A stretch of DNA of 64,000 nucleotides from Nitrospirales bacterium. Its GTDB lineage: Bacteria; Nitrospirota; Nitrospiria; Nitrospirales; UBA8639. The translations under genes were made by a program, and so were the position numbers. Below are positions 8,757-48,016 of the stretch, one piece after another. The notes beneath the pieces are model-generated. The model saw nothing but the letters and a program-made list of their open reading frames with translations, made no database searches and had not been told where the DNA came from. Where the stretch lies: NCBI GenBank assembly GCA_963555755.3, contig OY820905.2, positions 2,112,001 to 2,176,000 of the forward strand, read 5' to 3'. Each line of letters starts with the position of its first letter. Positions within the stretch are counted from its first letter, which is position 1.

Positions 8757-8888
8757 ACCCTAACTTTTCGAAGTATATATGGCACGGAAAGACCTGCCCT
8801 CCTGGCCTTTCCGCTCCCCTTTTTACCTCATCATTGGAAATTCCCATGTTGGACCGCTACGGAATATGTGACATTGCAAGACCTGGCC

Positions 8889-10357
8889 CAATACTGTTCA
8901 CTTAGATATCTTCGGTGGTTTGATGGATGGTGTCCAGTCAATTTGCGCAACGGGCGGTCTCGGACGTTTGTACGGTGCGTATGGAGAGTTTCGGCGTTTC
9001 ACCATCCTCGGCTTGATTTTTCCACGACTGGATTCACACAACAGTTTCGCCGTCGCCTCAAACAGCAGCCGATACCATGTTTTTTGGCGCTCAGGGGGGA
9101 AGGGCCCCAGATTGGGGCAGGGTTCGACGCACTAACTGCACCGTGGCCGTAAAAGATACCGTGCGGTCAGGGATGTCTGCCTGGGTGGCCCCTTGATACA
9201 TCAACCAGCGCACGGCGTAGTGGGCCATCACCCATCCGTAGAACTCTTGACGCACCAACTCTGGCGTTTTACTGCGCAGGACGCGACGACGTTGCCTCAG
9301 GTGCGTCTTCAGCTCATCAAACACCAATTCCACCTCCCAGCGCTCGTGATACAGTTGAGCCAGGTCCTGGGCGGGTGCGCCTTGGTCATCCAGCAGCGTG
9401 GTGACGAGACGGTACAGCGGTTCGCTATTGGGCCCCTGCGGTAAGACATACTCAATCACCCTGATGGCGATCCCATCAATTCGCTTTCTTCTGGCGCGTT
9501 CACTGGGATACAGATGGCTCAGGTACGAGCCATCGTCCAACAGCTTGTCAACTGGAAGGATCAAGCTCTTCGGCATGCGCCAGAGTAGTTGCGCTCCGGT
9601 CTGAAGGCCGGCCTGCCAATGGGCGTACCCGACAAAGCCGCGATCGGCCATGCAGAGCATGTCGGGCGTGAGGCGACGCACCAAGGGCGCGGCCACCTCC
9701 CATTCGGCCTGCTTATAGGCCCCTAGTTCGGCATCCAAAATGGCGTGACTGGCACATTCCGTCAAAATGGCGCACTGGGCTTGGGGGTAGCCGGCCTGCC
9801 CGGTTCGGCTCCCTGGGTACCCAAAGACTTGCACATTGGCTTCCTCATCCGGGACCTCAAAGTTGGAGCCATCTATCGCGACGAGTCGGTAGCCTGCAAA
9901 AAAGGCGTGGGCATGCTCTGGACGAGCCAACGGGCGCAAGCAGCGCTGTCCAATGGCTTTCAGCGCCTTCCACGTCAGCCGTGAGCGGGCTTTGCTGATG
10001 GCGGATTTGACAACGGTCACGGGAGCAACGGGTTTGTGGTCTTTCCATGCCAGCCCTTGGGCCACAGCGGCAAACACCGCTTCGTACGCGGCCTCGCTGT
10101 ATAAGCTCAACGCCATGGTGTAGTACACCACGGCAGAAGCGGGAAAGGTGCGGACACGTTCACTGTTACAATGATGTGCGTCAAGTTCTTCGTTGATGAT
10201 GGCCACCGGAAAGGCACGAGCCAGTAATCCCGTGCTCAAATAATCCGCCAATCGAGCCCCCGCCCCCAAGCCGACTTTCTTTCTTGCCATGTTGCCTCCT
10301 CCCAGATTACGTGTGGAGGCGAAGTATAACAGATTTTCATCTAAGTGAACAGTATTG
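8889..10357 (-). mobile_element. IS4-family element, copy 1
   Basis: TIRs CAATACTGTTCACTTAGAT; 10-bp TSD AGACCTGGCC at 8879-8888 and 10358-10367. Confidence 0.95.
9091..10290 (-). CDS. IS4-family transposase
   Basis: LVAIDGS, ADRGF, LYHERWEVELVFDELKT (YREK-like) motifs. Confidence 0.93.
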   Translation of the reverse strand: MARKKVGLGAGARLADYLSTGLLARAFPVAIINEELDAHHCNSERVRTFPASAVVYYTMALSLYSEAAYEAVFAAVAQGLAWKDHKPVAPVTVVKSAISKARSRLTWKALKAIGQRCLRPLARPEHAHAFFAGYRLVAIDGSNFEVPDEEANVQVFGYPGSRTGQAGYPQAQCAILTECASHAILDAELGAYKQAEWEVAAPLVRRLTPDMLCMADRGFVGYAHWQAGLQTGAQLLWRMPKSLILPVDKLLDDGSYLSHLYPSERARRKRIDGIAIRVIEYVLPQGPNSEPLYRLVTTLLDDQGAPAQDLAQLYHERWEVELVFDELKTHLRQRRRVLRSKTPELVRQEFYGWVMAHYAVRWLMYQGATQADIPDRTVSFTATVQLVRRTLPQSGALPP

Positions 10358-10388
10358 AGACCTGGCCCCATCTCGGCCTTAATTAATA

Positions 10389-10429
10389 AGTCAATACTCA
10401 TGCCTGACCCCATATCCTGACCCCATATC
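10389..10429 (+). repeat. Solo GACCCC-type end (AGTCAATACTCATGCCTGACCCC) with tandem end duplication
   Basis: The same 23-mer recurs at 5379 (degenerate), 11525, 31731, 45325 and inverted at 11234; here CTGACCCCATATC occurs twice. Confidence 0.85.
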
Positions 10430-10614
10430 TAATAATAGAATGAATACTCCTGATAATTTCCCGACCGGATCCCAACCGGAAAGGCCCCTCAGGATTGAAA
10501 TGTCCCAAAGGGCCTTTCATCTACCGATCCAGGTGGGAGGCTTCCGGCACGGCCTGTTTCCTTTTGCGTCAACCTGGTTTTTCAGTGATCACTTGATTCA
10601 AGAGCAGTCCCTCT

Positions 10615-10908
10615 TTATTTTATCTTGTCTAACACTCCCTGAATCTCATCCTCAGTAAAGGCTCGTAGAGTTTCTGTACGAACATTCCCCTTCGCACATC
10701 CTCCCATCATCACGGCAGCGGCCGTTTCATCATCGGGGGCCTCGAATATAATGACCCCGTCATACCGGCCCATCGTCCAGTAAATATTTTTGACTGACCC
10801 TCCACCTGCTTTGATCGAACTTCTAAAGTCCCCGGCCCGTTTGGCCGTGTTTTTCACATCATGAACACCTGGCTCCGTCCACCCAAACAGTGAAATAAAG
10901 GTTGGCAT
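10615..10908 (-). CDS. GYD-domain protein
   Basis: YWTMGRYDGVIIFEAPDDETAAA, GNVRTETLRAF. Confidence 0.9.
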   Translation of the reverse strand: MPTFISLFGWTEPGVHDVKNTAKRAGDFRSSIKAGGGSVKNIYWTMGRYDGVIIFEAPDDETAAAVMMGGCAKGNVRTETLRAFTEDEIQGVLDKIK

Positions 10909-11233
10909 GATCTCCTCCTTCTTGTTTGAAAAATAAGGATCGAAAGACAATGGGTCCCAGTCATTGTCTTCCCAGGCACTATAGTAGGCTCATGCATTCC
11001 AAGGGGCAACGGGGGAAGGTACCTGATAGAAAGTGAGGCAAGGGATACATATTTCCTCAACCAAAGATTTCAACCATTTTTCTTTTCTTTGATATTTTCA
11101 GTCACCTTGCCTCGGGTCTTATGAAGCTGATCGTTTTCTTGCACAATGCGCCGCCACTTTGGCGCGATTGCCGCACAAGGCCATGGTACACCAGCGGCGA
11201 GTGTGGTTTTTACTAATATCGGATATACGGTTA

Positions 11234-11563
11234 GGGGTCTGCATGAGTATTGACTAATGGGCACCTCTAAAAACCGTCCTTTTCCGTGATGGCGGCGTCA
11301 GCCGCGTGCTCACATCCTCATCTATTCGCCCATACATTCCGGTTTTCCGCGCGCGGTTTCCTTGCCCTCACAAAAAATGCCTGGTTTGTAGAGGTGCCCT
11401 TATATGGCATCAATGGGGCCAAGCCCCAGTTTGTCGAGATTAATTCAGAGGACTTGCAACAATGAACAAAATCATCAATCCGAAAATGACCCACAAAAAT
11501 CTCAACCTCTACACTGAATACATAAGTCAATACTCATGCCTGACCCTAATTCTGACCCTAATT
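11234..11563. mobile_element. Non-autonomous mini-element bounded by inverted GGGGTC(T/A)...TGACCC ends
   Basis: GGGGTCTGCATGAGTATTGACT (11234) is inverted relative to AGTCAATACTCATGCCTGACCC (11525); CTGACCCTAATT occurs twice at the right end. Confidence 0.7.
11259..11399. mobile_element. MITE (141 bp) nested in the mini-element
   Basis: TIRs GGGCACCTCTAAAAACC / GGTTTGTAGAGGTGCCC; no ORF. Confidence 0.7.
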
Positions 11564-12002
11564 CCGATTGCTTGGTCTGGGGTTTGGGCACTGATTGACC
11601 TTAGAGGGATACCCCGTGTATTTCGCTGACAATAGATGCCAACTGGTCAGGAATGGGACCCAGGGTGCCAGGGATATCCCATCTCAATCTGGCCCCATGG
11701 TCCTAAAGGACTTGTTGGATAATTCAAACTGTCAATTTTCAAATTGGCGGCAACAGGGGAACACCTTCAAGTGCCAGGAGAAAAGGTTCCTTTTTGGAAA
11801 GTCATAAAAGGTTTTCTAATCTGTCGCTTAAAATTTCTCCTGCAAGACGATGCCCCGCCTTCGTCATATGACTATCCCACTGAAAATACAGAGAACTTTG
11901 CTCATTTCCCTTTCTAAAATAGGGCGTTAAATCAAGGAACGGAATTCCATGCCTTTCGGAAAATTCTTGTAGCAGTGTGTTTGTATAGGATAAATCAACC
12001 GA

Positions 12003-12922
12003 TATGCCTTCCCATTTGACTAAGGTTAGTCCCTAGACTAGTCTGCTGGACTATGGACACAGGGTATGCTGCTGATATCTTGGATTTTTCTGTTAGGTTC
12101 CACACCGAAGAAGCGTGCTTCGAGTACTTGCGGGCGATTCGGTGGCCAGACGGGTTTATGTGTCCAGCTTGCGGTCATCGCGGTGGTTGGTGGCTCAAAA
12201 AATATTTCCGGTTTGAGTGTTCGTCGTGTCATAGACAGACATCACCGCTAAGCGGCACAGTGATGCATAGATCGCACTTGCCGCTACGGCTTTGGTTTTG
12301 GGCTGCCTATTTCGTCTCCACGCACACACCTGGCATCAGTGCTGTGCAATTGCAGCGTCAACTCAGTATCAAGAAGGTGGATAGCGCCTGGTATTTGCTC
12401 CACAGATTGCGACGAGGAATGGTACGACAGAACCGTGAACGGCTCGCAGGAACAGTTGAAGCCGATGAAACCCATATCGGTGGACCGGTAAAAGGCAAAA
12501 CGGGCCGTGGCGTCGCGAAAGCGAAAACCAAGACGTTAATAGCCGGAGCCGTAGAAATTGTCACGTACACACAAGGGGATCACTTTCGAGAGAAAGCAGG
12601 GCGTTTACGATTAGCGATTCTTCAAGACGCTGGAGAGAACGAGATCAAAGCATTCCTCAATAGCCATGTCGCTGAGGGCAGTAAGATCAAGTCCGATGGT
12701 TGGAAGGGATACTCGGCAAAAGCCTTTCTGAGACGGACCCAGGGTGACCCAGCAAGTGTCGCTCCACACATCCATAGAGCGTTCGGCAATCTGCAGACCT
12801 GGCTGAACGGGATTCACCATGGAGTGGATTCAAAATACCTGCAACACGCTATAACCGCCGTGAGACTCCACCTTCCAGAGTTTGTTGAAAATCCTGACCA
12901 GCAGCTGCCAGGAGTTAAATGG
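12003..12922 (+). mobile_element. IS1595 copy 2 with scrambled 3' end (part of a 1142-bp tandem duplication; possible assembly artefact)
   Basis: Matches copy 3 up to ~12725, then shows scattered micro-deletions and a hybrid junction. Confidence 0.7.
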
Positions 12923-13144
12923 GAAAGGTTCCTTTTTGGAAAGTCATAAAAGGTTTTCTAATCTGTCGCTTAAAATTTCTCCTGCAAGACGATGCCCCGC
13001 CTTCGTCATATGACTATCCCACTGAAAATACAGAGAACTTTGCTCATTTCCCTTTCTAAAATAGGGCGTTAAATCAAGGAACGGAATTCCATGCCTTTCG
13101 GAAAATTCTTGTAGCAGTGTGTTTGTATAGGATAAATCAACCGA

Positions 13145-14156
13145 TATGCCTTCCCATTTGACTAAGGTTAGTCCCTAGACTAGTCTGCTGGACTATGGAC
13201 ACAGGGTATGCTGCTGATATCTTGGATTTTTCTGTTAGGTTCCACACCGAAGAAGCGTGCTTCGAGTACTTGCGGGCGATTCGGTGGCCAGACGGGTTTA
13301 TGTGTCCAGCTTGCGGTCATCGCGGTGGTTGGTGGCTCAAAAAATATTTCCGGTTTGAGTGTTCGTCGTGTCATAGACAGACATCACCGCTAAGCGGCAC
13401 AGTGATGCATAGATCGCACTTGCCGCTACGGCTTTGGTTTTGGGCTGCCTATTTCGTCTCCACGCACACACCTGGCATCAGTGCTGTGCAATTGCAGCGT
13501 CAACTCAGTATCAAGAAGGTGGATAGCGCCTGGTATTTGCTCCACAGATTGCGACGAGGAATGGTACGACAGAACCGTGAACGGCTCGCAGGAACAGTTG
13601 AAGCCGATGAAACCCATATCGGTGGACCGGTAAAAGGCAAAACGGGCCGTGGCGTCGCGAAAGCGAAAACCAAGACGTTAATAGCCGGAGCCGTAGAAAT
13701 TGTCACGTACACACAAGGGGATCACTTTCGAGAGAAAGCAGGGCGTTTACGATTAGCGATTCTTCAAGACGCTGGAGAGAACGAGATCAAAGCATTCCTC
13801 AATAGCCATGTCGCTGAGGGCAGTAAGATCAAGTCCGATGGTTGGAAGGGATACTCGGCAAAAGCCTTGGCAGGATACGAACACCTGAGACGGACCCAGG
13901 GTGACCCAGCAAGTGCTGGGAAGCACGCTCCACACATCCATAGAGCGTTCGGCAATCTGCAGACCTGGCTGAACGGGATTCACCATGGAGTGGATTCAAA
14001 ATACCTGCAACACTATCTTGATGAGTTTGTCTTTCGCTATAACCGCCGTGAGACTCCAATGAGTACCTTCCAGAGTTTGTTGAAAATCCTGACCAGCAGC
14101 TCAAAACCCTTGGGATTCAATAAACTGAAGCAACCTTAGTTAAATGGGAAGGCATA
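13145..14156 (+). mobile_element. IS1595-family element, copy 3
   Basis: Same TIRs as copy 1; TSD TCAACCGA at 13137-13144 and 14157-14164. Confidence 0.95.
13195..14139 (+). CDS. IS1595-family transposase
   Basis: Protein identical to 528-1472. Confidence 0.95.
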   Translation: MDTGYAADILDFSVRFHTEEACFEYLRAIRWPDGFMCPACGHRGGWWLKKYFRFECSSCHRQTSPLSGTVMHRSHLPLRLWFWAAYFVSTHTPGISAVQLQRQLSIKKVDSAWYLLHRLRRGMVRQNRERLAGTVEADETHIGGPVKGKTGRGVAKAKTKTLIAGAVEIVTYTQGDHFREKAGRLRLAILQDAGENEIKAFLNSHVAEGSKIKSDGWKGYSAKALAGYEHLRRTQGDPASAGKHAPHIHRAFGNLQTWLNGIHHGVDSKYLQHYLDEFVFRYNRRETPMSTFQSLLKILTSSSKPLGFNKLKQP

Positions 14157-15404
14157 TCAACCGATTCTTCGTCAACTTTGGTGACCAACAACGCTTGCTG
14201 ATACGTTTCCTCTTCAACTTGTAACCGATTCGGAATATACATGATTAAGAATCGATGGTTGGTGAGTCTATCGATTTCGACAAGGAGAGCTTTGGTGACA
14301 TCCCATGGCCCTTCCATTTTCTCATGGAAGTTTTTAAAAAAATAATTGTCAAAGCCATCATAGGCAACTGGATTTTGTCGTAAGGGCTTGAGCAAGGCAA
14401 TTCTATAATCGATTAACGAATACAATAAGAAATGGTCACTCATAATCTTTTTTACTTTTTGGGAAAACGATAATGGTTTGGGGGTTTGATCAAGGACCAA
14501 TTCTCCACCCTGTAACATAAATGTTGGGCGCTTAGGGTTCTGTCCAAAATTGTCCATGATATCGTTGGGGAAAAAGGCAAGAACGGTAAAATCCGGTGAA
14601 AATTGCATTCCCAACTTTTTCAATAGCAAATATTCCTGTGTTGTTCCATAAGAGCTTTGGCCAAGATTTAAAAATTCCGTTCCTTCCAATTTCCGCTCTG
14701 CCACTTCACAAAATATTTCTTCGTGTTCGACACCCCACCCCCATGTGAAGGAATCGCCCAGTACCACAACCCGTTTAGAACCTACGGGTTTGGTAAAAGG
14801 GTATTCGTCATCCCGAAAGCCATGAGAATTCGTTTTGATGTTGACTGTAAATTCTCTACCTTGAAAGAGCCCCTCGTGATGAGGTATTTGAGTCCATCCA
14901 AGCTCAGGATCAAACTGATGGAAAGCACTCAGGGCATTAAACGTGACAAACTTGTAACCTCCAACCCGTAAAAATATTTCACAAACCAGCAACACAACCA
15001 GTATGGAGACGACCGTGAGCAATGCGTTTTTGGCGAAAGACTTCATATGATGGCTCCTGGCAGAAATGATTTCTGAAGCCTTGGTTCGCGACCAAGAAAC
15101 ATAATATGGGTAAATGTGCCGAGGTAGGGTACCCGACTTTTCTCAATGCCATGGAAGAAAAACTCCCCCAAATACACAACTTTCATTGTCTTCAACATCC
15201 AAAGTCTACAAAAATCTTAAAAAATTTCTCCGAATTATAAACGGAACCATTGGAAATGCAAACGTGTGGCCAGGCAAAGGTAGGAAGAAGAATGGTACAC
15301 TAGGAGCGAGAGACACCCGGTACCTGGCGTATGTATTTTGGGGGAACTGTTGGGGCACTTATCAAAATTTCCAAAAGGTCGTGAGGCTTTGTTGACCGTT
15401 GCAA

Positions 15405-16258
15405 TGACCGGCTGGTTGGTCATCATGCCGCCATGGCTTTCAGCCACCGTTCCTCCGCAACTCCTGTTTGAGTCAGCTGAAGGCATGCAACCAATTGCGC
15501 AACGACTTCAGCAGGTGGATCCCCAACAATTTCTGGCAATCATGGATTTCATGGGGCTTCAACATCCGGGGCCACCCATTCGGGTGATCCTTGCACCGGA
15601 TGGGTCCGACCTCGCGCAACACGTACCGGCGTGGGTCGTCGGGTATGCCATAGGACAGGCATCCACGATTGTGCTGCTCACCGACCGGGTTGCCAACTAT
15701 CCCTATGATTCACTCGAAGGGGTCCTATTCCATGAAATTGGGCATATTTTGACTCATCGGGCAGCAGGTGGACACGATGTCCCACGATGGTTGGATGAAG
15801 GTTTGGCCATGATGGCGGCCCGCACCTGGAATATCGAAGAAAGGGCCAGGCTGGTGTGGGCCATGGTCGCTGGGCACCAGGTATCATTTGACGAGCTGAA
15901 CGAGTGGTTTGTCACCGATGGCCCCTCAGCCAGGCGTGCGTATGTCATCGCCCATGCGTTGACGCTGTATCTTCTCGACCAGACATCACCTGATTTTCCC
16001 AAGCGCCTGCTTGCCAAGGTCGCCACAGGCACTCCCTTTCGAAACGCCTTTGCCCAGACCGCATTGATGACCCTTGAACAAGCCGAAACCAAATTTTGGA
16101 TGCAACAAACGCTGTGGAATCGTTGGATCCCCGTGGCGACAAGCTCAGGGATGGTGTGGTTGATGATTGCTGCGTTGGTTTTTTATGCCGCGAGAAGGCA
16201 GCGAAAACGAGCCGCCGCCATTCAACAACGCTGGGAGGAAGAAGACCTGGGGCCCTAA
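15405..16258 (+). CDS. Peptidase MA-like zinc metalloprotease with C-terminal TM helix
   Basis: HEIGH...VPRWLDEGLA; start position uncertain. Confidence 0.8.
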
Positions 16259-16492
16259 TTCGTCAGATGGAACTATCGCCACATCATTCTGTCCAGAGGT
16301 GAAACATCCCAGCCGCCCAAAGGGATTTGAAGCTCCACATGGATATGTGTTACTAAATCTGGGAACCGCAGTTGGGTGCAAAACCGCCGTTTCCAGGCTA
16401 ACGCTCACCCTGCATGTCACCTAGACTTTTTGGTGTGCGACCCTCCCCGTTTCATACCTCATATCTAACGCCTGATTCTGAAAAGGAAGAAA

Positions 16493-17347
16493 ATGGGAAA
16501 CAAGGATATACTGCCTTCTCGAGAATTCGGGCTAATCATGGGCCTGATAATTGGAAAGTTTTGTCTGAAAATGGAGGACCTCCATTATGGGTATTGGACT
16601 GATGATCTACCGGTAGAAGTTCAAAATCTCCCGAAGGCACAGGCTCAGTACACAGAGGTTCTGATAGGGAATATTCCGGAAGGGGTTCGGACGATTCTGG
16701 ATGTGGGATGTGGAACAGGCCACACGGCACGGAAACTACTCGACAGAGGCTACCAGGTTGATTGTGTATCTCCCAACCCGCACCTCACCAAACTTGCGAA
16801 AGAAAAGCTTGGCGATCAGTCTACAATTTTTGAGTGCCGGTACCAAGAGTTGGACACGGACCGAAAATACGATTTAGTCCTCTTTAGCGAAAGCTTTCTG
16901 TTCATTCATCCAGCCGAAGCCGGGATGAAGATGTCCGAGCACATTCTCAATAAAGATGGCCACATTTTAATTACGGATGTCTTTAAAATGACTCCCGATG
17001 GCCAAAGCCCTATTGGGGGCGGACACCATATGCACATTTTTCATGACACCTTTTCCAATTCTCCCTTCAAGCTGCTGAAAGAAGACGATATCACCAAGAA
17101 CATTGCTCCAACGTTTGATGTGTTGAATGATGCCTACACACAATGTATAAAGCCGGCCTACGATTTACTCATGACACGTTTCAAGGCAAGCTATCCCTTG
17201 GCGATGAAATTTATCCTGTGGAAGTTCAGGGCAAAATTTGAAAAAATTGAAAAGAAACATTTTTCTGGAAAGCGAACCGCTGCAAACTTCGCCAAACACA
17301 AATCCTACCGCCTCTTCCTTTTTCAGAAGGTGCAAGCCACTTCTTAA
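16493..17347 (+). CDS. Class I SAM-dependent methyltransferase
   Basis: LHYGYW, ILDVGCGTG. Confidence 0.9.
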   Translation: MGNKDILPSREFGLIMGLIIGKFCLKMEDLHYGYWTDDLPVEVQNLPKAQAQYTEVLIGNIPEGVRTILDVGCGTGHTARKLLDRGYQVDCVSPNPHLTKLAKEKLGDQSTIFECRYQELDTDRKYDLVLFSESFLFIHPAEAGMKMSEHILNKDGHILITDVFKMTPDGQSPIGGGHHMHIFHDTFSNSPFKLLKEDDITKNIAPTFDVLNDAYTQCIKPAYDLLMTRFKASYPLAMKFILWKFRAKFEKIEKKHFSGKRTAANFAKHKSYRLFLFQKVQATS

Positions 17348-17602
17348 ACAACGACTCAACCTTTACCCACGACTTTCAGAGTGAACATGGATTTATCCTG
17401 ACCGTTCACCATCCTGAGGCAGAAAATATTCCATACCTTCAAATATGGTCGAAAGTTGCCCTCCAGTTGTCGACCTTGTACTCACCCCAGAACAATGTCT
17501 AACCATGACCTGCACTCTGCTTCTACTCACGAGTCGAGTGTGAATCAGAAGACTCTCACGACACACCCAATCCCTCGCCTTCATTCCGGTCTCAACTCTT
17601 GA

Positions 17603-18292
17603 CTACAATTCCATTTTCGGTAGTTTTCGGAAAATAACCACATCGTCTCCAATGATTGTAGCGTTGGTCTGCCATTGAACAGCGAGCCATTCAAAGGTGG
17701 AACGGGAGAAAAATGAGACGTGAGTGGGGTCCTTTTTGTAGTACCAATTTGCAAAACGGTCTTTGGTGGGTGCGAGTTTAGTCATGATGCCCAAATAGCC
17801 TCCAAGTATGAGGCAATCCCAGAGCCCATTCAAATCTTGGCCAGGGAGATGAAGATGCTCCAGCACTTCGGTTGCCGTAATAAAATCATAGGTCTCATGA
17901 AGGGCTGTTGGGTGAGGGGCATAAAACGAATCGTAAAGCGTCATAGCATGCCCCTGTTCTTCAAACATCAGGGATAGAGTCGGACCCGGGCCTGATCCAA
18001 AGTCGAGGCCGCGACCGCCCTGAGTCAACAAGGGATGGAGAGGATCAAACAGCCGACTCAAGAATTTTCGATAAGCCGGGTCATCAGGATTATTTTCATG
18101 AGTGTCATATCGAGCTTTTTCCTCCTCAGCTGACAGGAAATAGTCAGGCGGCACAAACGTTAACGAACATGTGGAACATTGAAAATACTCCCGGATAGAA
18201 TCTTGGAAAAAAAGAAAGACCCGTTCCGCAAAGCATAAAGGACAGGAGGTCTGGGAAGATATCTGCTTGGCTCCCATGCCGGGTTTAACCAT
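17603..18292 (-). CDS. SAM-dependent methyltransferase with N-terminal Zn ribbon
   Basis: CPLC/CSTC, GLDFGSGPGP, WYYKKDPTHVSFFS; start uncertain. Confidence 0.85.
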   Translation of the reverse strand: MVKPGMGAKQISSQTSCPLCFAERVFLFFQDSIREYFQCSTCSLTFVPPDYFLSAEEEKARYDTHENNPDDPAYRKFLSRLFDPLHPLLTQGGRGLDFGSGPGPTLSLMFEEQGHAMTLYDSFYAPHPTALHETYDFITATEVLEHLHLPGQDLNGLWDCLILGGYLGIMTKLAPTKDRFANWYYKKDPTHVSFFSRSTFEWLAVQWQTNATIIGDDVVIFRKLPKMEL

Positions 18293-18494
18293 TTTTTTCC
18301 TTGAATTTCTCAAAAGAATTGAAAGCGATAGCCCAGAAAAACGTCAACAGCGCAATACAAGTAACGCTTATACCAATTTGTCCAAATAATAGCGGTGTTG
18401 AAAAAATGCCAGAGGTGTCCAACTCTATTTGGATATAATGTTTTTGGCCTTCTAGAAAATACCAGAAGCCCACAATTAAATACTCGAACGGGTA

Positions 18495-19595: not shown

Positions 19596-19778
19596 AGTCG
19601 GTTACTCAGAAAATAAAGTGGCGATGAGACTGTTATCAAGGTACTGAATAGATAGATCCAGCATATGCCCCCGAGCAATCAATTTCAAGAAGGGATGATA
19701 CGATACAGTTTTGGATCAGATCGGGACGTAAATCTCTTTCCCAAAGAATCCGTCGGACCCGTGTTTCTGTGCCGTGTT

Positions 19779-21037: not shown

Positions 21038-21767
21038 GTCGGATCACACTCACGGGCGAGAAACACGTCTTGGGTTTTGTGGAAACGGGAACCGAAAATG
21101 AGTCTGTGCTCACACCCTTTCTCCAGGAGTTGGGTGAGCGCGGCCTCGATAGCTCCCAAGGCCTGTTGGTGATTCTCGATGGGGGAAAAGGCCTGCGAGC
21201 GGCCGTGCGCCAAGCCTTTGGCCACTCAGCGCTGGTGCAGCGGTGCCAGTGGCACAAACGAGAGAATGTGGTAAAGCATGTACCGAAAGGCGAACAAGTC
21301 ACCTGGCGACGACGGCTTCAACGAGCGTATCAGCGCCCGACGTATGTGGAAGCCCAGACGGCGTTACACGGCCTGCAGAGGGAGCTGGAGGCCCGGAAGC
21401 AATCAGTAGCCCAAAGCTTAGGGGAAGGTCTGGAGGAAACGTTGACGTTGCATCGGCTGGGCGTCTTTGCCCTCGTCGGCTTGTCCTTCAAGACCATGAA
21501 TTGCCTGGAATCGATCAATGCCTTGGTGGAAGAGCGGTGTGCCAAGGTGGATCGCTGGACGAATTCTCACCAGCGGCAACGCTGATTGGCCACGGCATTG
21601 CTGGATATCGAACCACGGCTTCGGAGGGTCAAGGGCTATCGGCACTTGCCCAAGCTACGTGAGGCCCTGCGACGAGATTTGAAAATTGAGAAAGCCATGA
21701 CAAAGAAGGTTGCGTAACGTGAACATCGGAGCCGTGGAAAATTTCAACTAACTTTGGGCTTGACTCC
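21038..21767 (+). pseudogene. IS256-family transposase, 3' fragment with premature stop
   Basis: VILDGGKGL, QRCQWHKREN, NCLESIN; stop at 21583-21585. Confidence 0.85.
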
Positions 21768-21868
21768 CCGTAAAAGTTTGCATGGAAACTCACGAGGTTG
21801 AAGGTGAGCCGGCAAAAAATGGTGTCCATGAAGGCAAGGGTCATCATCACATTCTGGTGGATATCGAT

Positions 21869-23426
21869 TTAATGAAACACCACATGGCAAAATACCAGAG
21901 ACGCCAAAAGCAGCCCTCCGAACCAACCAACCTTTTTCGTAGAAACGTTAAGCAATTCCCCCCAGCCTTGGGGCCAACCATTCTTCACAATTGTTGGAAT
22001 GGCCACCACGAAGATGACCGCAATAATGATAAGAGTAGAGCGATTGAGGTAGTTCATGTCCGGTGCCAGCCACTTTAATAATATAGTGAGCCCAACACTT
22101 CCAATGAGAGTATGGAATACCAGCTTTTTAGATGAGCTGATTAGAAATACAGCACAAACAATAAGAAATACAAATCCATTTTTTACGTAGTAGGAAGCCT
22201 CGTTAAACCAGTGCGTGAGGGCAAAATTTGGGTCCTCAAATTTTACGTAGACAACCACATAGGCAAAGAATAAACCAGCACACAAAGCTCCGATTATCCC
22301 TTTTCTACCCATAGAAACCATTTCACTATCTGTTGCGTCGGGTTTAATATATTTCTTATATATATCTACTGACCACAGGGTCGAAACCGAATGGAAAATG
22401 GAGTCTACACTGCTCATGAGCGAAGCAAACAAACCGCAAAGAATGAATCCTTTTAACCCATGGGGTATCAGTTCAATAATCAAAGTTGGATAGGCAAGAT
22501 CCGGATCAGAAAGCGGCCGATGTGAAAGGATTCCCACCAGAGCTATCCCAGGAATGATAATAATCAAGGCCATCAAGTACTTTAAGAACCCACCAACAAT
22601 TAATCCTACTTGGGCGTGGTAGAGGTTTTTGGCTGCCAGTGCCCGCTGTAAAATAATTTGGTTGCAACCCCAATAATTGAGATTTAAGAGCATCATTCCG
22701 AAGAGAGCAGGCCAGGGAAGTTTGGGATGATCCGATGGCATATGCAAGTGCATCAAGTTTGGAGTTTTTTCGTAAAGCATCGTCCACCCACCCAGTTCCT
22801 TCATTGCTACAGCAACAAGGATCACCCCCCCCTACGACCATTAAGACAAATTGAGCGATGTCTGTTCTTACGACGGCGCCCATTCCACCTAAATAGGTAT
22901 ACGTTGCCGAGAAAACTCCCAATATTATTGTAATCATAAAAATGCGGACCATGGGGTCGTAATGAATAAAACGAATGTTTTCTTCAAAAATAGCATTGAC
23001 GGCATAAGCCCCCCAAAAGAGCGCTGAGCCAAGATAAAGAAACCCATAGAGCAAGATCATTAACATGGAATAGGTGAGAGCTACCTGCGATCCGAGTCTC
23101 TGTTCAAAAAATTGGCTAATAGTGGTTACCTTAGCCGCAAGGTAGAGCGGGATAAAAACAAATGCGGCGATTAAAATACCCAGAATCGCGTTGATTTCAA
23201 AATTTGCCTGCACCAATCCATATAAATAAGCCGACCCGGCCATTCCAATAAAATGACCAGCATGGATGTTTGTGGAAATTGTCGAAAATGCAATGACAGG
23301 CCAACGAAGGGTGTTCGATTTTAAAAAATATTCATGCGCCGTGGTATTTTTGTCGTCCCTCTTTACAATCCCTTAAGTAAAGATAACGATAAAATAGGTC
23401 GAGATTATAATAAGATCCAAAACCAT
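21869..23426 (-). pseudogene. Sodium:solute symporter (SSS) family, in-frame stop plus frameshift
   Basis: GGMGAVVRTD, WGCNQIILQRALAAKN, SLMSSVDS; TAA at codon 18 and a frameshift at the C8 run near 22825. Confidence 0.85.
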
Positions 23427-23477
23427 AAAAAAATGGACCATTAACAGGTTGCTGAAGAATGGTTTTTAGGGGTGCCC

Positions 23478-24584
23478 TTAAGATAATTTCACTTGATACC
23501 GTGTACTGCGACCAGCTCCCGAGGACATCAAGGCACCGTTTGCCACCAGCTCTTGTAGGTCTCTCGTGGCTGTCGCCTTTGAAGTCCCGGTGATCGCGAT
23601 ATATTTTTTGGTACTCATTCCACCTTGAAAGCCTTGATGTCCCTCCTCGAACATTCGGCGAATAACACGAAGCTGACGTTCGTGAAGCTGATCGTGAAAC
23701 CGGTTAAAAATTTTCGTTTTCTTCAAGGTAAAATCAATGTGTTCCTTAGCCATTATTTGCGCATCTAAGATCACGGAGACGAAATACTGAATCCAGGCGG
23801 TGATCTCGTTTGATCTTTGGGCCTTTTTCAACCCGGCGTAGTAGGATTTTTTATGAGCCTCAATGGGTTTTGACAAACTTAGAAGGATAGGTCGGCCTAA
23901 TCCCTGGAATAGCGCCTTTTCAGAAAGCGCCCTTCCTATTCTGCCATTGCCATCCTCAAAAGGATGAATAGATTCAAAATACAGATGCGCAATAGCCGAT
24001 CGCACGGGTGATTTTTTGATTTCTTTTGGTCCTCCCGGTTGCGTGTCATTGAACCACTGGAAAAATCCTTTCATTTCTTTGGAAACCCGTGGCGAAGGCG
24101 GCGCTTCAAAATGCACCTTCCATTTTCCGATTGGTCCTGACACCACCTGCATCGGTTCTTCATAGGTACGCCACACCCCAATCTTATGTTTTGCCTCTCC
24201 CTTCATAATCATGGCGTGCCATGAAAACAGTTTTTCCTTGGTGAGTGTTTGAGAAAAGGTATGGCGTACATCGACCATAAGTTCCGCAGCACCCTGGGCT
24301 TTGATATCCCTGATCGGTTCCGCAACGGGGTTCAGTCCCAAATTATTTTTAATGGATGACATGACATCCTGGCGACTGAGATATTCCCCTTCGATTTCTG
24401 AAGTCTTCATGGCCTCAGCCACCATCATGTCAATGATGGCTTCGGTTTGGGCATCCTCAGGCAAGGCCTGAAGAATCCCACTGACATGACCTTCCTTTTC
24501 CGCAAATGACAGGAGAAGATCCTCAATGTTCTTGAGATCATATTGAAAATGAGGCCAGTCTGGTAGTTGCCAGTTGAAACTCAT
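23478..24584 (-). CDS. Fic family protein (DUF4172 N-terminus, C-terminal HTH)
   Basis: NWQLPDWPHF, TSEIEGE, HPFEDGNGRIGR, SKATATRDL. Confidence 0.93.
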   Translation of the reverse strand: MSFNWQLPDWPHFQYDLKNIEDLLLSFAEKEGHVSGILQALPEDAQTEAIIDMMVAEAMKTSEIEGEYLSRQDVMSSIKNNLGLNPVAEPIRDIKAQGAAELMVDVRHTFSQTLTKEKLFSWHAMIMKGEAKHKIGVWRTYEEPMQVVSGPIGKWKVHFEAPPSPRVSKEMKGFFQWFNDTQPGGPKEIKKSPVRSAIAHLYFESIHPFEDGNGRIGRALSEKALFQGLGRPILLSLSKPIEAHKKSYYAGLKKAQRSNEITAWIQYFVSVILDAQIMAKEHIDFTLKKTKIFNRFHDQLHERQLRVIRRMFEEGHQGFQGGMSTKKYIAITGTSKATATRDLQELVANGALMSSGAGRSTRYQVKLS

Positions 24585-25156
24585 GAGCCGATTATACCAT
24601 TTAATCGGCTCATTTTTAACAATTTTTTGAGCCGGTTATGATATGCGATCACCTCAGCAACCTTGTCCCCCAGGCACACTTCAGATTTTATTTTGTGAGT
24701 AAAAAAAGGCAAAATTGAAAATGAGCCTAAGAATAGCGTTTCTGTTCAGATGACCTGTCTGCGTAGACCAATAATATTAGCGACGCAGGAAAAGCCAAAT
24801 CCAATTAGGAAAACCTGCATGGTACTTCCCTACGGGGTATAGTGTTATAAATTTCAATCTAGCTATTCCCCGTAGCTCTGCTACGTGGGTTTCATTATAG
24901 AAAGTATGATCATTCTTCCTCTGAATACCCCGTTGCTCGCGGCGGGGATCTTTTATTGGAATATTCCTATTCTCCCTCGCCCCTGTGGGGAAATCTGCCT
25001 GCGCGAAGCTGCTATCAACCTCCGTAGCCACTCCGGCGAAGGAGGCTCGGCGAAGGCTTGGGGTTGGGTGAGGGTTCTCTTCTCCGGAAGTTAAAATACC
25101 ATTATATCGTCAGGGAATTTCTGACCAAAGGGAATTGAGAAAGAGGAGAAAATGTA

Positions 25157-25453
25157 ATGCCTGAGTACTTCCTTGCCTATCATGGTGGGAGAATGCCGGA
25201 GAACCTTGAGGAACACATGGGGAAGTTTATGGAGTGGGTCGGCGGCCGTGGCAAGGCCGTAGTCATGCCCGGCATGCCCTTGGGACGGGCTAAGATCGTG
25301 AGCACCGATGGTGTAGCAGCCGATGGTGGGGCGAAACTGATAGGGTTTTCCATTCTGGAAGCCGACAGCCTGGAGGCGGCAGTTGAAATGGCGAAGACGT
25401 GCCCACACCTTGTGATTGGTCAAGTTGAAGTCGTGGAAATGAAGGAAATGTAG
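25157..25453 (+). CDS. YCII-related protein
   Basis: GFSILEADSLEAAVEMAKTCPH. Confidence 0.8.
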   Translation: MPEYFLAYHGGRMPENLEEHMGKFMEWVGGRGKAVVMPGMPLGRAKIVSTDGVAADGGAKLIGFSILEADSLEAAVEMAKTCPHLVIGQVEVVEMKEM

Positions 25454-25519
25454 TCTCCCGCGTCGGGATAGGGTGAGTCTTTCTTTGTCCTTTTGGATGT
25501 GGCATTGCAAGACCTGACC

Positions 25520-26987
25520 CAATACTGTTCACTTAGATATCTTCGGTGGTTTGATGGATGGTGTCCAGTCAATTTGCGCAACGGGCGGTCTCGGACGTTT
25601 GTACGGTGCGTATGGAGAGTTTCGGCGTTTCACCATCCTCGGCTTGATTTTTCCACGACTGGATTCACACAACAGTTTCGCCGTCGCCTCAAACAGCAGC
25701 CGATACCATGTTTTTTGGCGCTCAGGGGGGAAGGGCCCCAGATTGGGGCAGGGTTCGACGCACTAACTGCACCGTGGCCGTAAAAGATACCGTGCGGTCA
25801 GGGATGTCTGCCTGGGTGGCCCCTTGATACATCAACCAGCGCACGGCGTAGTGGGCCATCACCCATCCGTAGAACTCTTGACGCACCAACTCTGGCGTTT
25901 TACTGCGCAGGACGCGACGACGTTGCCTCAGGTGCGTCTTCAGCTCATCAAACACCAATTCCACCTCCCAGCGCTCGTGATACAGTTGAGCCAGGTCCTG
26001 GGCGGGTGCGCCTTGGTCATCCAGCAGCGTGGTGACGAGACGGTACAGCGGTTCGCTATTGGGCCCCTGCGGTAAGACATACTCAATCACCCTGATGGCG
26101 ATCCCATCAATTCGCTTTCTTCTGGCGCGTTCACTGGGATACAGATGGCTCAGGTACGAGCCATCGTCCAACAGCTTGTCAACTGGAAGGATCAAGCTCT
26201 TCGGCATGCGCCAGAGTAGTTGCGCTCCGGTCTGAAGGCCGGCCTGCCAATGGGCGTACCCGACAAAGCCGCGATCGGCCATGCAGAGCATGTCGGGCGT
26301 GAGGCGACGCACCAAGGGCGCGGCCACCTCCCATTCGGCCTGCTTATAGGCCCCTAGTTCGGCATCCAAAATGGCGTGACTGGCACATTCCGTCAAAATG
26401 GCGCACTGGGCTTGGGGGTAGCCGGCCTGCCCGGTTCGGCTCCCTGGGTACCCAAAGGCTTGCACATTGGCTTCCTCATCCGGGACCTCAAAGTTGGAGC
26501 CATCTATCGCGACGAGTCGGTAGCCTGCAAAAAAGGCGTGGGCATGCTCTGGACGAGCCAACGGGCGCAAGCAGCGCTGTCCAATGGCTTTCAGCGCCTT
26601 CCACGTCAGCCGTGAGCGGGCTTTGCTGATGGCTGATTTGACAACGGTCACGGGAGCAACGGGTTTGTGGTCTTTCCATGCCAGCCCTTGGGCCACAGCG
26701 GCAAACACCGCTTCGTACGCGGCCTCGCTGTATAAGCTCAACGCCATGGTGTAGTACACCACGGCAGAAGCGGGAAAGGTGCGGACACGTTCACTGTTAC
26801 AATGATGTGCGTCAAGTTCTTCGTTGATGATGGCCACCGGAAAGGCACGAGCCAGTAATCCCGTGCTCAAATAATCCGCCAATCGAGCCCCCGCCCCCAA
26901 GCCGACTTTCTTTCTTGCCATGTTGCCTCCTCCCAGATTACGTGTGGAGGCGAAGTATAACAGATTTCATCTAAGTGAACAGTATTG
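25520..26987 (-). mobile_element. IS4-family element, copy 2
   Basis: Same TIRs as copy 1; TSD AGACCTGACC at 25510-25519 and 26988-26997. Confidence 0.95.
25722..26921 (-). CDS. IS4-family transposase
   Basis: Near-identical to 9091-10290. Confidence 0.93.
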   Translation of the reverse strand: MARKKVGLGAGARLADYLSTGLLARAFPVAIINEELDAHHCNSERVRTFPASAVVYYTMALSLYSEAAYEAVFAAVAQGLAWKDHKPVAPVTVVKSAISKARSRLTWKALKAIGQRCLRPLARPEHAHAFFAGYRLVAIDGSNFEVPDEEANVQAFGYPGSRTGQAGYPQAQCAILTECASHAILDAELGAYKQAEWEVAAPLVRRLTPDMLCMADRGFVGYAHWQAGLQTGAQLLWRMPKSLILPVDKLLDDGSYLSHLYPSERARRKRIDGIAIRVIEYVLPQGPNSEPLYRLVTTLLDDQGAPAQDLAQLYHERWEVELVFDELKTHLRQRRRVLRSKTPELVRQEFYGWVMAHYAVRWLMYQGATQADIPDRTVSFTATVQLVRRTLPQSGALPP

Positions 26988-27104
26988 AGACCTGACCCAC
27001 AATCGACCCCCAATCGGGAAAATATTTCCAAGACAGAAGAGGAGCAACAATACCGAAAATTATAAAATTCGCGGGCAAGAAAAATATTTCTTCATTATAT
27101 AACC

Positions 27105-28022
27105 TTAATTGCAAATCCTATAAATCCTAGACATTATCCTTTGTCGGAAAGGGTATATCATTTGCAAAAGAGGCAAGAGCGGCACTTGCCACCAAGGGGT
27201 TGAATGCCCATCCTGGAAATCCTTGTCACTGATTCCTGTCGCGGGGTAGACATTGTAGTCGCGAACTTGCGTCCTAAAAATATAATCCCAAATACTGAAC
27301 AACGAACCAAAGTTCTTGTCTTGATATTGATCATCAATGGCATGATGAATACGATGCGACTGCGGGGTCACAAAAAGATATCTAAGCACGCCTAAATTAG
27401 CCCTGATATTCCCATGATAGAATCGAGAATACCACCTTTGAAAGAACAATAAAGCTACAATCGTTGGGACATCGAATTGTAAAAACAAGAATGGAATGAC
27501 CAGCACCGTATGGCGGACCAGGCATTCAACGACGTGATATCGGTAATCAGTAAAGAAATTCAACTCTCTCTGCGAATGGTGTACCTTATGAAAATGCCAT
27601 AGTATGGAAAACTTGTGATTAGCCACATGCTGAACCCAGTAAAGAAAGTCGGTCAGGAGCAAACCGACAACAAGCCGGACCCCTTCGGGCCATAAATTTA
27701 ACGCCTCGATAGTGAGAGAATTAAAATGCTGAACATAGAGGGATTTAAGCCATATAACATAAGTGGAAAGAACTAAAATGTGAAGTACAAATTCGTAGAC
27801 AAACCAGACAGCATCCTGGGCCAAGCTCTTACTGAAGATTTTTTCATTGGGCCTGGCGGGTAGCAACCATTAAAGAAGCCATGTAAATGATACAATGAAG
27901 ATAAATTCATTCGTGAATACAATATATCGAAACAGCTCGTAGACAGGTATGAAAAGGTGTTCCCGTGCGAGGCGAACAGCAGCGTCTATCCAGTTCGGCC
28001 ACTGAGGATTGCCATTGAACAT
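27105..28022 (-). pseudogene. Sterol desaturase / fatty-acid hydroxylase family gene with nonsense codon
   Basis: His boxes HVANH, HKVHH, HRIHH; in-frame TAA at 27870-27872. Confidence 0.82.
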
Positions 28023-28289
28023 CACGCAGCTCCTAAAATAATGATGATACACTCATTGGTTATGCTCCCCAAAAGAAAATCCCCCTCCTTCGCTCGCATG
28101 AATTTCTGCATTCGAATCAGTGGCCCAAAACAGCACGAAATTGAAAACCAAGTTTTACAACCGTTGGATTCTCTTGATATTTTCTAATGAACCTGTCCCT
28201 TCCATTCATTCACCCGTCGTGAAAAACTTGAGTTTTTCAGATACCAGAAAGGCTGGATGGATTTTTTGACCATACGGTCACAAGAAGGA

Positions 28290-28649
28290 TTAGGGTGAAT
28301 AAAGGGATTGCCAACCAAGAAAAGAAGCAACGGCTTCGTCTACTGATGAAAACACAGGCACTAGACTATCCAAATGCACCAGGTTGAAAATCTCCCGAAC
28401 GAATTCCTGCGGGTTTGCTAAACCAAATTGAATTTTCTCGGTAGCCAAGGATCGATAAGATTTGGTACACGCACTCAACATAATACTGTCAACGTAGCGA
28501 ACCTGGCCAAGATCAACAATAATTCGTTGAAATCCTTCATCCCTCACTTCCTGAATCGCCTTGAGAAATTCCAACCGCATGTAAAGGTCTAACGTTCCAA
28601 TGGGATGTAGAATAAGTATTCCATTTCTGGCTTCCTTTAGAATATCCAT
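28290..28649 (-). CDS. STAS-domain anti-sigma-factor antagonist
   Basis: IIVDLGQVRYVDS, VREIFNLVHLD. Confidence 0.85.
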   Translation of the reverse strand: MDILKEARNGILILHPIGTLDLYMRLEFLKAIQEVRDEGFQRIIVDLGQVRYVDSIMLSACTKSYRSLATEKIQFGLANPQEFVREIFNLVHLDSLVPVFSSVDEAVASFLGWQSLYSP

Positions 28650-28734
28650 GACATGTATCCTTCTCACGTTAACTTATCGGTCAACCCTTAAAAGGGTTGA
28701 GACATGGCCTCGTCGTTGGTTTCTTACACCGAAA

Positions 28735-28840
28735 GGGGACGCTCCCATTTTTTTTTGCACGGCTTCTTCGGTACTTTTCCGATTGACCAAAATTCGCGTT
28801 TACATTTCTTATTCCCATCATGGAAATAAAGGGTGCATCC
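28735..28840. mobile_element. ~105-bp mini-element with GGGGACG-type inverted ends
   Basis: GGGGACGCTCCCATTTTT ... AAATAAAGGGTGCATCC; inverted related copy at 31256-31358. Confidence 0.65.
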
Positions 28841-30450
28841 CAGGGTGAATGTTTTCTTTCCCACTTCCAGCATACATTCAATCAGTTGAAGTGCATTCTG
28901 GACATTTTCCCCTGATTCTGATAGAACGTGTGATATTGTTCATCACGGGAGAGACAGTGTGCATCTTCAAGCGATTCGTGTCCGTCCTGTTTGTGCCGCC
29001 GAGGAGTCTCGGTTTCAGGACGCCATGCGTGCCCATCACTACCTCGGCGCCCTGCCGAAGATCGGGAACACCCTCTGGTATGTCGCCTGCGTGGAGGGGG
29101 ACTGGGTGGCGCTGGTGAGTTTTTCCGCTGCGGCGTTGAAGTGCGCCGTTCGCGATGAGTGGGTCGGCTGGGCCTTTCGGCACCAGTTCGACCGGCTGAA
29201 CCTGGTCGCCAACAATTCCCGCTTTCTGATTCTGCCGCACTGCCACCACCCGAACGTGGCATCGCGGGTGCTCTCGCTCTGCCGGCAACGAATTCAGCAA
29301 GACTGGCGAGAGCGGTTTGGGTTCCCGCTGCTGCTGCTGGAGACCTTCGTGGATCCGACCCGGTATCAGGGCACGATCTATCAGGCGGCCAACTGGCGCT
29401 TGCTTGGATTCACGAAGGGGTATGCCCGGACTCGGACCGGCTATAGCGACATCCCGCACACGCCCAAGAAGGTCTTCGTCCTGCCCCTGCAACGCAATAC
29501 GCGCACCCTGCTGTCTCACCCCTTGTTACATCCTCAGTATCAAACAGGAGTGCCACGGATGCAAGTAACGGCTGAACACATGCGCTCGTTACCTGATTTT
29601 TTCAAGGAGATAGCCGACCCGCGTCGGGCCGAGGGCCGCCGCCATCGGCTCGAAGTGGTGTTGGCCCTTGCCGCAGCCGCCACCCTCTGTGGGCGGCACG
29701 GCTACAAAGCGATGGCGGATTGGGCTCAGGCGCTGGGGCCGAAAGCGCGCGCCCGGTTTCGCTGCCGGTTTCGAAATCGACAGTATCTCGTGCCCAGCGA
29801 AAGCATCATCCGGGACGTGCTGATTCGAGTCGATCCTGCCGACCTGGATCACGCCCTCCAAGGCTGGAATGCCCACTATGGCGCCGTCGACGAAAGCCTG
29901 GCGATCGATGGGAAGACCATGTGCAACGCCATTGATGAGGCCGGACGCCAGACCCACATCATGAGCGTGGTCGGGCAACAGAGTGCCCAGTGCTACACCC
30001 AAAAAAAGTGGGCACGCTACCGGTAGAAGGGCGTGATGAGGCGAAGCAGACCAATGAAATCAAAACGGCCATCCCGCTGCTGGACGCCATCGAGATCCGC
30101 GGCAAGACCATCAGTGCCGATGCCCTGCTCACCCAACGCGAGCTCGCCCGCTATCTCGTGGAAGAGCGTGGGGCCCACTACCACTTCACCGTCAAGGGTA
30201 ATCAAAAACATCTGCTGGAAGAAACGGCCTTCTATTTTGCCCCCTGTGAGCACCCGCCGAATTTCACCACCACCGATGGCGACCATGGCCGGCTCGAAAT
30301 CCGCAAGATCTGGGTCACCACCGAGCTCAACGCCTACCTGAACTTCCCGCATGTCGGGCAAGCCTTTATGGTAGAACGGTTCACGAGAGACAAAAAGAGT
30401 GGTAAAGACCGATCCGATATTGCCTATGGCATCACCAGCAAACCGCCTGC
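28841..30450 (+). mobile_element. ISAs1-family element with N-terminal DUF4338-like domain, 3' truncated
   Basis: CAGGG left end; NNSRFLILP/LLETFVD domain, then ADPRR, AIDGKT, DALLTQ, VKGNQ, DHGRLEIR; frame change at A7G near 30001. Confidence 0.88.
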
Positions 30451-30593
30451 AATGAGTTTTTTGACCATACCGGGTTTAAAGGGATTAGGTCTCTAGCCAC
30501 CTTGACGCGGCTACGAAACTAATTGGACAATCATGAGATCCCGAATCCTTGCCTTAGGTAAGGACCGGGCTTGACGTTCTCATAGGCCCTGGA

Positions 30594-31255: not shown

Positions 31256-31358
31256 GGAAAGGGGACGGGAAAGGGGACGCTACCCTTTATTTTCATGATG
31301 GGAGCAGGAAATTTATTCGCTATTTTTGGTCAATCGGAAAAGTACTGAAGAGGCCGTG
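31256..31358. repeat. Inverted partial copy of the 28735 mini-element with a duplicated end
   Basis: GGAAAGGGGACG x2, then sequence reverse-complementary to 28757-28840. Confidence 0.7.
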
Positions 31359-47912: not shown

Positions 47913-48016
47913 GTAGAGTAGAGCACTGGTGCATACATGGAGCTGCTCTCGAACGCTTCGACGCACGCGTCTACCACGGACCATAGCAGTCAGCACTTCC
48001 CAGCGCCCCCTCATCA

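Follow-up and report, generated by a model that had tools for sequence, protein, structure and literature searches.

We analyzed a 64,000-nucleotide (nt) stretch of DNA from a Nitrospirales bacterium (the window; C1:2112001-2176000 of the 4.6-Mb genome G000), in which two unrelated mobile elements, an IS4-family insertion sequence (IS) and a group II intron, are inserted at the same base of short repeats that carry the motif GACCCC. These GACCCC ends are the terminal inverted repeats (TIRs) of TIRYT-type Y1 transposases, with the GGGGWSAS motif. We consider it likely that TIRYT ends are read as DNA sequence, and independently, by unrelated elements, for which this abundant intergenic repeat serves as a safe haven; the IS4 element and the intron are each specialised on one spot in the end repeats, probably because these are abundant and harmless sites. 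An earlier note on this DNA had proposed that unrelated elements converge on these ends, which holds far beyond chance for the IS4 element and the group II intron and not above chance for a third element, an ISAs1-family IS. The genome as a whole is rich in mobile DNA (45 repeat families).

The identity of the ends follows from Y1 genes with a DnaA-like helix-turn-helix (HTH) that are framed by GGGGTCA repeats, which fit GGGGWSAS. Two genes of this kind, encoding a Y1_Tnp core plus the DnaA-like HTH and carrying GGGGTCA repeats on their flanks, lie in the window at 54750 and 61414 (PF01797 above cut-off; PF08299 slightly below cut-off, E 4e-7 to 5e-6), and GGGGTCA ends are also found at other Y1 loci of the genome. 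The TIRYT genes and the empty ends of the window are as follows.

54641..54727 (plus strand): left TIR array of the TIRYT gene; outermost copy split by the intron, inner copy (54702-54727) intact
54750..55730 (plus strand): TIRYT gene, Y1_Tnp plus DnaA-like HTH, 326 residues
61414..62394 (plus strand): second TIRYT copy, with a stuttered TTGACCCC right-end array to about 62670
7003..7027 (plus strand): degenerate, unoccupied end of TIRYT type, GCA-AGACC family, whose 10-mer has 3 mismatches
10389..10421 (plus strand): unoccupied end that belongs to a different family (AGTCAATACTCATGCCTGACCCC) and carries a tandem stutter
28735..28840 (no strand assigned): mini-element bounded by TIRYT ends of the GGGGACGC type, of which the right one is degenerate; a distinct dispersed repeat of about 60 bp lies inside
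31263..31358 (minus strand): inverted partner copy of the mini-element, with an intact GGGGACGCTACCC end and stutter

The end at 7003 had been called an empty degenerate site in the earlier note, and it is real (AGGCCTAATC, against AGACCTGACC as the standard). Several end families occur in the genome, all with RRYYTGACCCC or a near variant, and 176 11-mers of the RRYYTGACCCC type were counted compared to about 40 expected from Markov models. The end preferred by the IS4 element, GGGGTCAGGTCTT, flanks Y1 genes in other organisms (loci L005, L012, and L015), and for the GGGGACGC variant of the mini-elements (28735, 31273), GGGGACGCTACCC was found directly beside Y1 genes in L202, L209, and L219 (3 distinct of 20 loci). 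No GTAG-footed palindrome, as in canonical repetitive extragenic palindromes (REPs) or REPtrons, was seen in the ends on inspection by eye, and NF047646 scored below cut-off. Empty family ends lie outside long open reading frames (ORFs) in 121 of 128 cases, while long ORFs make up 70% of the genome; this supports the safe haven that the earlier note had proposed, for which we infer selection.

Both IS4 copies of the window are located in one motif, ATGTGRCATTGCA-AGACCTGRCC, with 10-bp duplications AGACCTGGCC and AGACCTGACC and with the outer edge at CC^C (^ marks the junction); the second site continues CA, not CC. The coordinates of the earlier note, 8866 and 25497, as well as its duplications, hold.

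8889..10357 (minus strand): IS4-family element, subgroup IS4, 1469 bp, with a 399-residue DDE transposase at 9091-10290
8866..8888 (plus strand): inner TIR arm and left 10-bp duplication copy (8879-8888)
10358..10369 (plus strand): right duplication copy and CC, the regenerated outer part of the end
25520..26987 (minus strand): second copy of the same IS4
25497..25519 (plus strand): inner TIR arm and left duplication copy (25510-25519)
26988..26997 (plus strand): right duplication copy of the second IS4 site

Length, matches to PF13006, PF01609, and NF033592, and the YREK motif YHERWEVELVFDELK at residue 314 place the element in subgroup IS4; its ends, CAATACTGTTCACTTA, fit -AATR--------WTW, and all 21 full genomic copies have a 10-bp duplication. 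This duplication is exactly AGACCTGACC in 15 copies, differs from it by one mismatch in 4, and is AGTCTTGACC in one and unrelated in one. RRYYTGACC-type ends hold 20 of the 21 copies; five other IS families have none of their 93 copies there. TGACC^C stands at the duplication edge in 16 of the 21, with controls at 0/34 (IS1595), 0/10 (another IS4), 0/11, 0/6 (IS1380), and 0/32 (ISAs1). Ten-mers that nearly match the target are followed by CC at 15 of 19 occupied sites but at only 29 of 117 empty intergenic ones; IS4 recognition therefore reaches beyond the duplication. Copies face both ways (10 and 11 of 21), and 9 of 21 are in leading-strand orientation. Recent copies (98-100% identity) fill 12 of the 17 listed ends of the GCA-AGACC family, one of these 17 being the degenerate end at 7003, and this end is the own TIR of none of the 19 Y1 loci of the genome (with one loose 9-mer match). 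Clean orthologous empty sites for the two window copies were found in none of five relatives; in G005 the end is cut into by a deletion that begins within it, in G002 different genes occupy the place, and for the second site no orthologue was found.

Target specificity is restricted to one clade. The closest relatives of the IS4 element are mostly Nitrospirales and Nitrospirota records. Among the best 80 of 359 related loci, ends were readable in 68. Relatives with at least 53% identity lie within one mismatch of YTGWCC at 30 of 36 readable loci, compared to 0 of 32 in a sister group with less than 53% identity, in which 30 loci have a YTAR core; a branch with 100% support in the Shimodaira-Hasegawa-like approximate likelihood ratio test (SH-aLRT) splits the two groups in a quick, midpoint-rooted tree of 55 distinct proteins. 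A Y1 gene is present in the locus DNA of 6 of 45 members of the closer group and 0 of 35 of the other, and in L005, L012, and L015 the IS4 element sits inside the left TIR, just upstream of the Y1 start codon. A second IS4 lineage, with GAATGGCACT ends, 26% identity to the window IS4, and an 11-bp duplication (L122:1477-2889; L102; L173; L220-L230), was found in TIRYT ends at 6 of 9 readable loci and at three further junctions beside introns, with its outer duplication edge one base further out. Another IS4, with a DruA-like N-terminal region and 11 copies (e.g., G000:C1 575944 and 3296386), targets GC-rich palindromes and C runs, and four of its insertions are in a related GGACCCC..GGGGCCGCGCAC repeat. 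The 3' flank at L118 resembled an IS4 end and was rejected, as no IS4 transposase match was listed behind it.

The intron, which the earlier note had described as ORF-less and located at the same position, does start there: its start follows GACTTGACC^, with CC on the other side. On the letters alone the boundary could shift by one C, and its placement relies on the AY 3' end and on exon-binding site 1 (EBS1).

47913..54640 (minus strand): group II intron that has lost its ORF, with YTGACC^CC as insertion site; about 747 nt are its own (53999-54640 and 47913-48017)
48018..53998 (minus strand): three tandem copies of an unrelated group II intron encoding a reverse transcriptase (RT), lodged in the outer intron's domain V region
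54445..54450 (minus strand): GGTCAG, the EBS1 of the outer intron; the final six bases of the exon form its complement

Matches to Rfam RF02005 and RF00029 identify the outer intron as group II, and full-length copies carry RVT_1 and GIIM, with no HNH match at E 0.1. Two related lineages, whose RTs are about 60% identical, account for 12 and 5 5' junctions in the genome; RRYYTGACC^C is present at all 17, and CC begins 16 of 18 3' junctions. The RRY part occurs at 33% of 654 intergenic YTGACCC sites compared to 17/17 intron 5' junctions. A domain I hairpin loop carries EBS1, GGTCAG, and for 30 of 38 distinct external exons, taken from metagenome and phylum loci, the pairing with EBS1 extends over all six bases. 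EBS1 covaries with the GGGGTCAG/GGGGACAG end variants: U stands opposite exon A/G in 30 cases and A opposite exon T in 5, with no cross-overs. The loop is GGACAG exactly where the exon is CTGTCC, the other TIRYT variant (5 cases), and TGTCAG and TGCCAG occur with matching exons. A Y1 match is present at 7 of 93 intron loci, and at L103, L118, L138, and L176 the intron is in the adjoining end repeat.

The introns also show a strand bias; 15 of the 17 genomic introns are in leading-strand orientation, compared to 69 of 176 empty ends (P about 4e-5), and the invaded strand is therefore the lagging-strand template, which endonuclease-less introns prefer. The choice of origin is immaterial to this bias because no intron lies between the GC-skew minimum and dnaA. 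These two points are about 210 kb apart (2.705 Mb and 2.916 Mb), which suggests a rearrangement near the origin. The 5' part of the intron gave a single-strand fold z of -1.3, and no same-strand joint that skips the intron was found in public contigs matched to the full-length intron. The end families on the two sides of the window intron differ, and recombination between intron copies may have brought them together. At C1:687387-687543 and C1:245501-245615, short intron 5' fragments are cut off by a second TIR end, and ends therefore also invade the intron. Most genomic copies of the inner RT intron are likewise found inside domain V of another intron.

The IS4 element and the intron do share one step. 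In L010 (Betaproteobacteria) the IS4 duplication and the intron abut at the same bond. By DDE chemistry, the IS4 element would break the G strand at the shared step and the C strand ten bases inward, and the intron enters the C strand at the shared step, so that the two would break opposite strands. The junction of the end itself was read where an end interrupts multi-copy sequence (43 rows, of which 11 without an exact 10-nt match and 3 IS-end artefacts with offset 0 were dropped, leaving 29); it lies at +4 to +8 from the shared base in 22 of the 29 informative cases, with 15 at +6/+7 and none at 0 or +1, these offsets being lower bounds owing to microhomology. A common exposed cut is doubtful because the strands would be opposite, the second IS4 lineage is at +1, the end junctions lie at +4 to +8, and no Y1 locus of this genome has the end that IS4 prefers, although recent IS4 copies fill most listed members of that family; these four results argue against the shared base being a TIRYT cut. 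A core of 11-12 bp would leave about three registers for a 10-bp duplication or for a 6+1 pairing, and coincidence in position would thus not be improbable.

The two elements divide the targets within this genome. IS4 copies occupy AGACC ends (18) and none in the AGATT, GAGTC, and ATGCC families; introns occupy AGATT (6/73), GAGTC (3/30), AGACC (2), GACTT (2), and AGGCC (1) contexts; and the AGTCAATACTCATGCCTGACCCC family has 0 of 20 ends occupied by either. Occupied neighbouring ends pile up at C1:1420471-1429300 (ISAs1, three IS4, and an intron) and at C1:174569-178040 (IS4 and intron). Either element, once inserted, lies between the inner arm and the terminal 7 nt and plausibly blocks the function of that end copy. 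Among 22 clade loci with both junctions read, 6 have the IS4 element between two outer ends, with the interior gone, and 3 have it between two inner arms; if both ends of an element held an IS4 copy, recombination between the copies would give such loci, and assembly chimeras could mimic them. Tandem stutters leave spare end copies, for example at the window TIRYT. Such 11-13 nt stutters of the terminal motif, along with longer copies of nearby DNA, were observed at TIRYT ends at 54641-54727, 55724-55760, 62388-62670, and 47886-47912.

In the mechanism that we favour, the ends of TIRYT (Y1 HUH, subclass 2.1) provide abundant, almost wholly intergenic repeats with the core RRYYTG(A/T)CCCC. The IS4 clade would read about 12 bp of duplex DNA, with the target AGACCTGACCCC, and duplicate positions -10 to -1; the endonuclease-less intron would pair EBS1 with YTG(A/T)CC and reverse-splice at the next bond (YTGACC^C), entering mostly single-stranded lagging-strand template. 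Both would land about 7 bp inside the end, between inner arm and terminal bases, at low cost to the host and on a target replenished by TIRYT spread and end stutter, and they would share a base as both fit a short conserved core that allows only about three registers. Several points weigh against this reading. Of the 291 ten-mers that differ from the target by at most one mismatch, just 19 hold a copy. Occupied sites have been filtered by selection, so that the counts overstate biochemical preference; related loci are also not independent, and the clade split comes from the quick version of the tree. On the intron side, the five GGACAG cases may share one origin, so that a Fisher test overstates the EBS1 covariation, and no EBS2 register for RRY at -7 to -9 exceeded a Watson-Crick fraction of 0.57 in 51 introns scanned by alignment column, so that part of the intron specificity could reflect protein or structure.

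That no RNA partner was found for intron specificity beyond EBS1/EBS3 gives some room to the idea that bound TIRYT (through its C-terminal HTH on GGGGTCA), or its nicking, marks the ends and guides invaders to the complex or to an exposed strand. Convergence of three lineages on one 11-bp window would fit this idea, as would the local rearrangement of ends, since a second GACCC/GTCCC lies within 20 nt in 45 of 128 empty ends. We nevertheless regard such marking as unlikely, given that the end junctions lie well away from the shared base, that the second IS4 lineage cuts at +1, that IS4 fills a family of ends that is the TIR of no Y1 locus in the genome, and that the intron bias fits ordinary single strands at forks. 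The earlier note's suggestion of a structurally exposed or protein-marked cut is weakened by the same evidence, together with the fact that EBS1 sets the intron position. Insertion at a loose consensus, with survival only in neutral repeats, would fit the intergenic location of the ends, the one IS4 copy at an unrelated site, and the 6 of 36 clade loci beyond one mismatch; however, the five other IS families have passed through the same selection without a single copy in the ends, CC follows occupied near-matches far more often than empty ones, and EBS1 tracks both end variants. These within-genome controls largely refute an origin without special targeting, which we hold to be highly improbable.

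It has also to be considered whether the invaders were selected, by the host or for their own sake, for disabling TIRYT, i.e., hyperparasitism as control. The parting of the inner arm from the terminal 7 nt and the six clade loci that have lost their interior would be in line with such a role; those flanks, however, may stem from chimeric assembly across IS copies, the window TIRYT retains an intact inner TIR copy behind the intron, and the intron 5' fragments at C1:687543 and C1:245501 are themselves cut off by TIR ends, which leaves selection for disabling quite improbable in our view. A broader picture, in which the ends form a cross-phylum landing platform with its own guild of parasites (at least two IS4 lineages and one intron lineage), partly guided by TIRYT protein that binds or opens the end, with the host element switched off by insertion 7 bp inside its terminus and a three-level arms race as the outcome, is conceivable and is offered as speculation. 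Reading of TIRYT ends as DNA sequence by each invader separately is the explanation that we retain.

The third element at an end of this type does not belong to this group.

28841..30451 (plus strand): ISAs1-family element with a DruA-like N-terminus and two overlapping ORFs, single copy, right end deleted

Its first base, 28841, follows GGGTGCATCC, which puts the junction at CC^CC in an end of TIRYT type, and the orthologous empty site in G005 reads GGGTGCCTCC^CCTTTTTG, then TTGAC, with GGGTGCCTCC^CC at the junction; the position that the earlier note had assigned to ISAs1 is thus correct. No duplication is visible because the right end and about 33 bp of flank, by comparison with G005, have been deleted. 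As a TIR-targeting element ISAs1 was rejected: the survey of other IS copies, which the earlier note had named as a check, found the IS4 element in ends and none of 32 paired sites of the other ISAs1 of the genome there. A TTGAC lies 15-20 nt out at 11 of these 32 sites, compared to a background of 1.25% (P about 1e-13), with controls at 1/61 (four families) and 0/21 (window IS4). The window ISAs1 has the same 8-nt gap to TTGAC, and the copy of the same ISAs1 in G006 is located at a non-TIR site, 8 nt plus the duplication length from a TTGAC box. The window ISAs1 is in the end by coincidence, and its position obeys the family spacing to a -35-like TTGAC box. ISAs1 families (e.g., at 330452, 3948788, and 4519690) lie 8-9 nt plus a 10-bp duplication from -35-like TTGAC, with TTGCC- or TTGCA-like variants seen by eye.

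Elements that aim at the ends of other elements are known, and TIRYT ends as a target class were not found described in openly accessible literature, nor was any report of IS4 or group II introns in such ends or any functional study of the TIRYT enzyme family found there; the accessible parts of PMC7306698, PMC12584367, and PMC9208149 contain nothing on TIRYT ends. TIRYTs, or TIRtrons (TnpA-Y1 subclass 2.1; 2.1.2 combines a Y1 core with a C-terminal Bac_DnaA_C-like HTH), are covered by Di Nocera 2013 (PMC3733652) and Quentin 2018 (10.1101/279083). Their accessible text shares with our data the Y1 plus DnaA-like HTH, the GGGGWSAS inverted repeats, and dispersed solo, dimeric, and clustered ends, and describes no element inserting in the ends, whereas here the ends are targets, the GGGGACGC variant is included, and the junction lies about 5 nt beyond the four C's. 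Among REP-targeting IS, i.e., ISRm22 (IS4), ISPpu9/ISPpu10, ISPa11, and ISPsy8, the accessible part of Tobes and Pareja 2006 (PMC1525189) likewise places all copies at one position of a Y1-associated repeat and gives ISPpu9 and ISPpu10 a shared insertion point; the targets there are palindromic REP hairpins, in contrast to the non-palindromic TIR core found here, where a DNA transposon and a retroelement converge. IS4321 and IS5075 in Tn21-family terminal repeats and the IS1111-attC elements (cited in the accessible part of PMC11187229) are also specialised on the ends or recombination sites of other elements; these are RNA-guided IS110/IS1111 recombinases, unlike the DDE IS4 transposase and the group II intron of this study.

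With regard to the intron, fork-primed mobility of endonuclease-less introns has been described (PMC4424553, accessible part). Group IIC and IIC-attC introns, covered by the same review, similarly lack the endonuclease, use a short exon pairing, and target a motif that is repeated between genes. What IIC introns recognise is a hairpin, with few bases paired; the present lineage, compared with classes IIC, IIE, and IIF by their published descriptions, forms six base pairs with a linear TIR core and has its Rfam matches to D1-D4-6. In the IIE/IIF introns, EBS2 is dispensable for splicing (PMC3753933, accessible part). For subgroup IS4, e.g., ISBvi1, the accessible part of De Palmenaer 2008 (PMC2266710) gives 1400-1650 bp, a single DDE ORF, Y(2)R(3)E(6)K, and a 10-13 bp duplication, and the window IS4 agrees in size, AATR..WTW ends, YREK motif, and 10-bp duplication; the nearest named relative found is 46% identical, and relatives that distant insert at sites centred on YTAR rather than in TIR ends. 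In Nitrospirota and Proteobacteria alike, a short linear motif is the point of convergence for a DNA transposon and a retroelement, the latter with an RNA guide (EBS1) that tracks two motif variants, and the target switch inside IS4, from YTAR to AGACCTGACC, offers a setting in which specificity residues could be mapped. The joining point of about 5 nt beyond GACCCC is a first estimate for TIRYT and makes the enzyme testable, and a site-selective DDE transposase with a target of about 12 bp could serve as a tool.

Other features of the window provide context. The dispersed repeat of about 60 bp inside the mini-element at 28735 ends in ATTCCTATTCCC, is found at 28758-28816, 31290-31358, 5932-5988, and 36243-36313, and recurs in relatives; we take it to resemble an IS91/ISCR origin end. 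A mobile mystery gene pair stands between solo ends, flanked by the same-facing ends 7003/7226 and 8866.

7655..8756 (plus strand): genes for two mobile mystery proteins, A with an HTH match below cut-off and B with Fic

There is a further Fic gene (23478-24584) ahead of the second IS4 site and a PIN gene after the TIRYT at 61414, and genes of this kind may be cargo of the ends. Finally, an IS1380 copy (about 57813-59399) splits a gene of low GC content at 56369-61116, which has cupredoxin repeats and matches to PQQ-like propellers.

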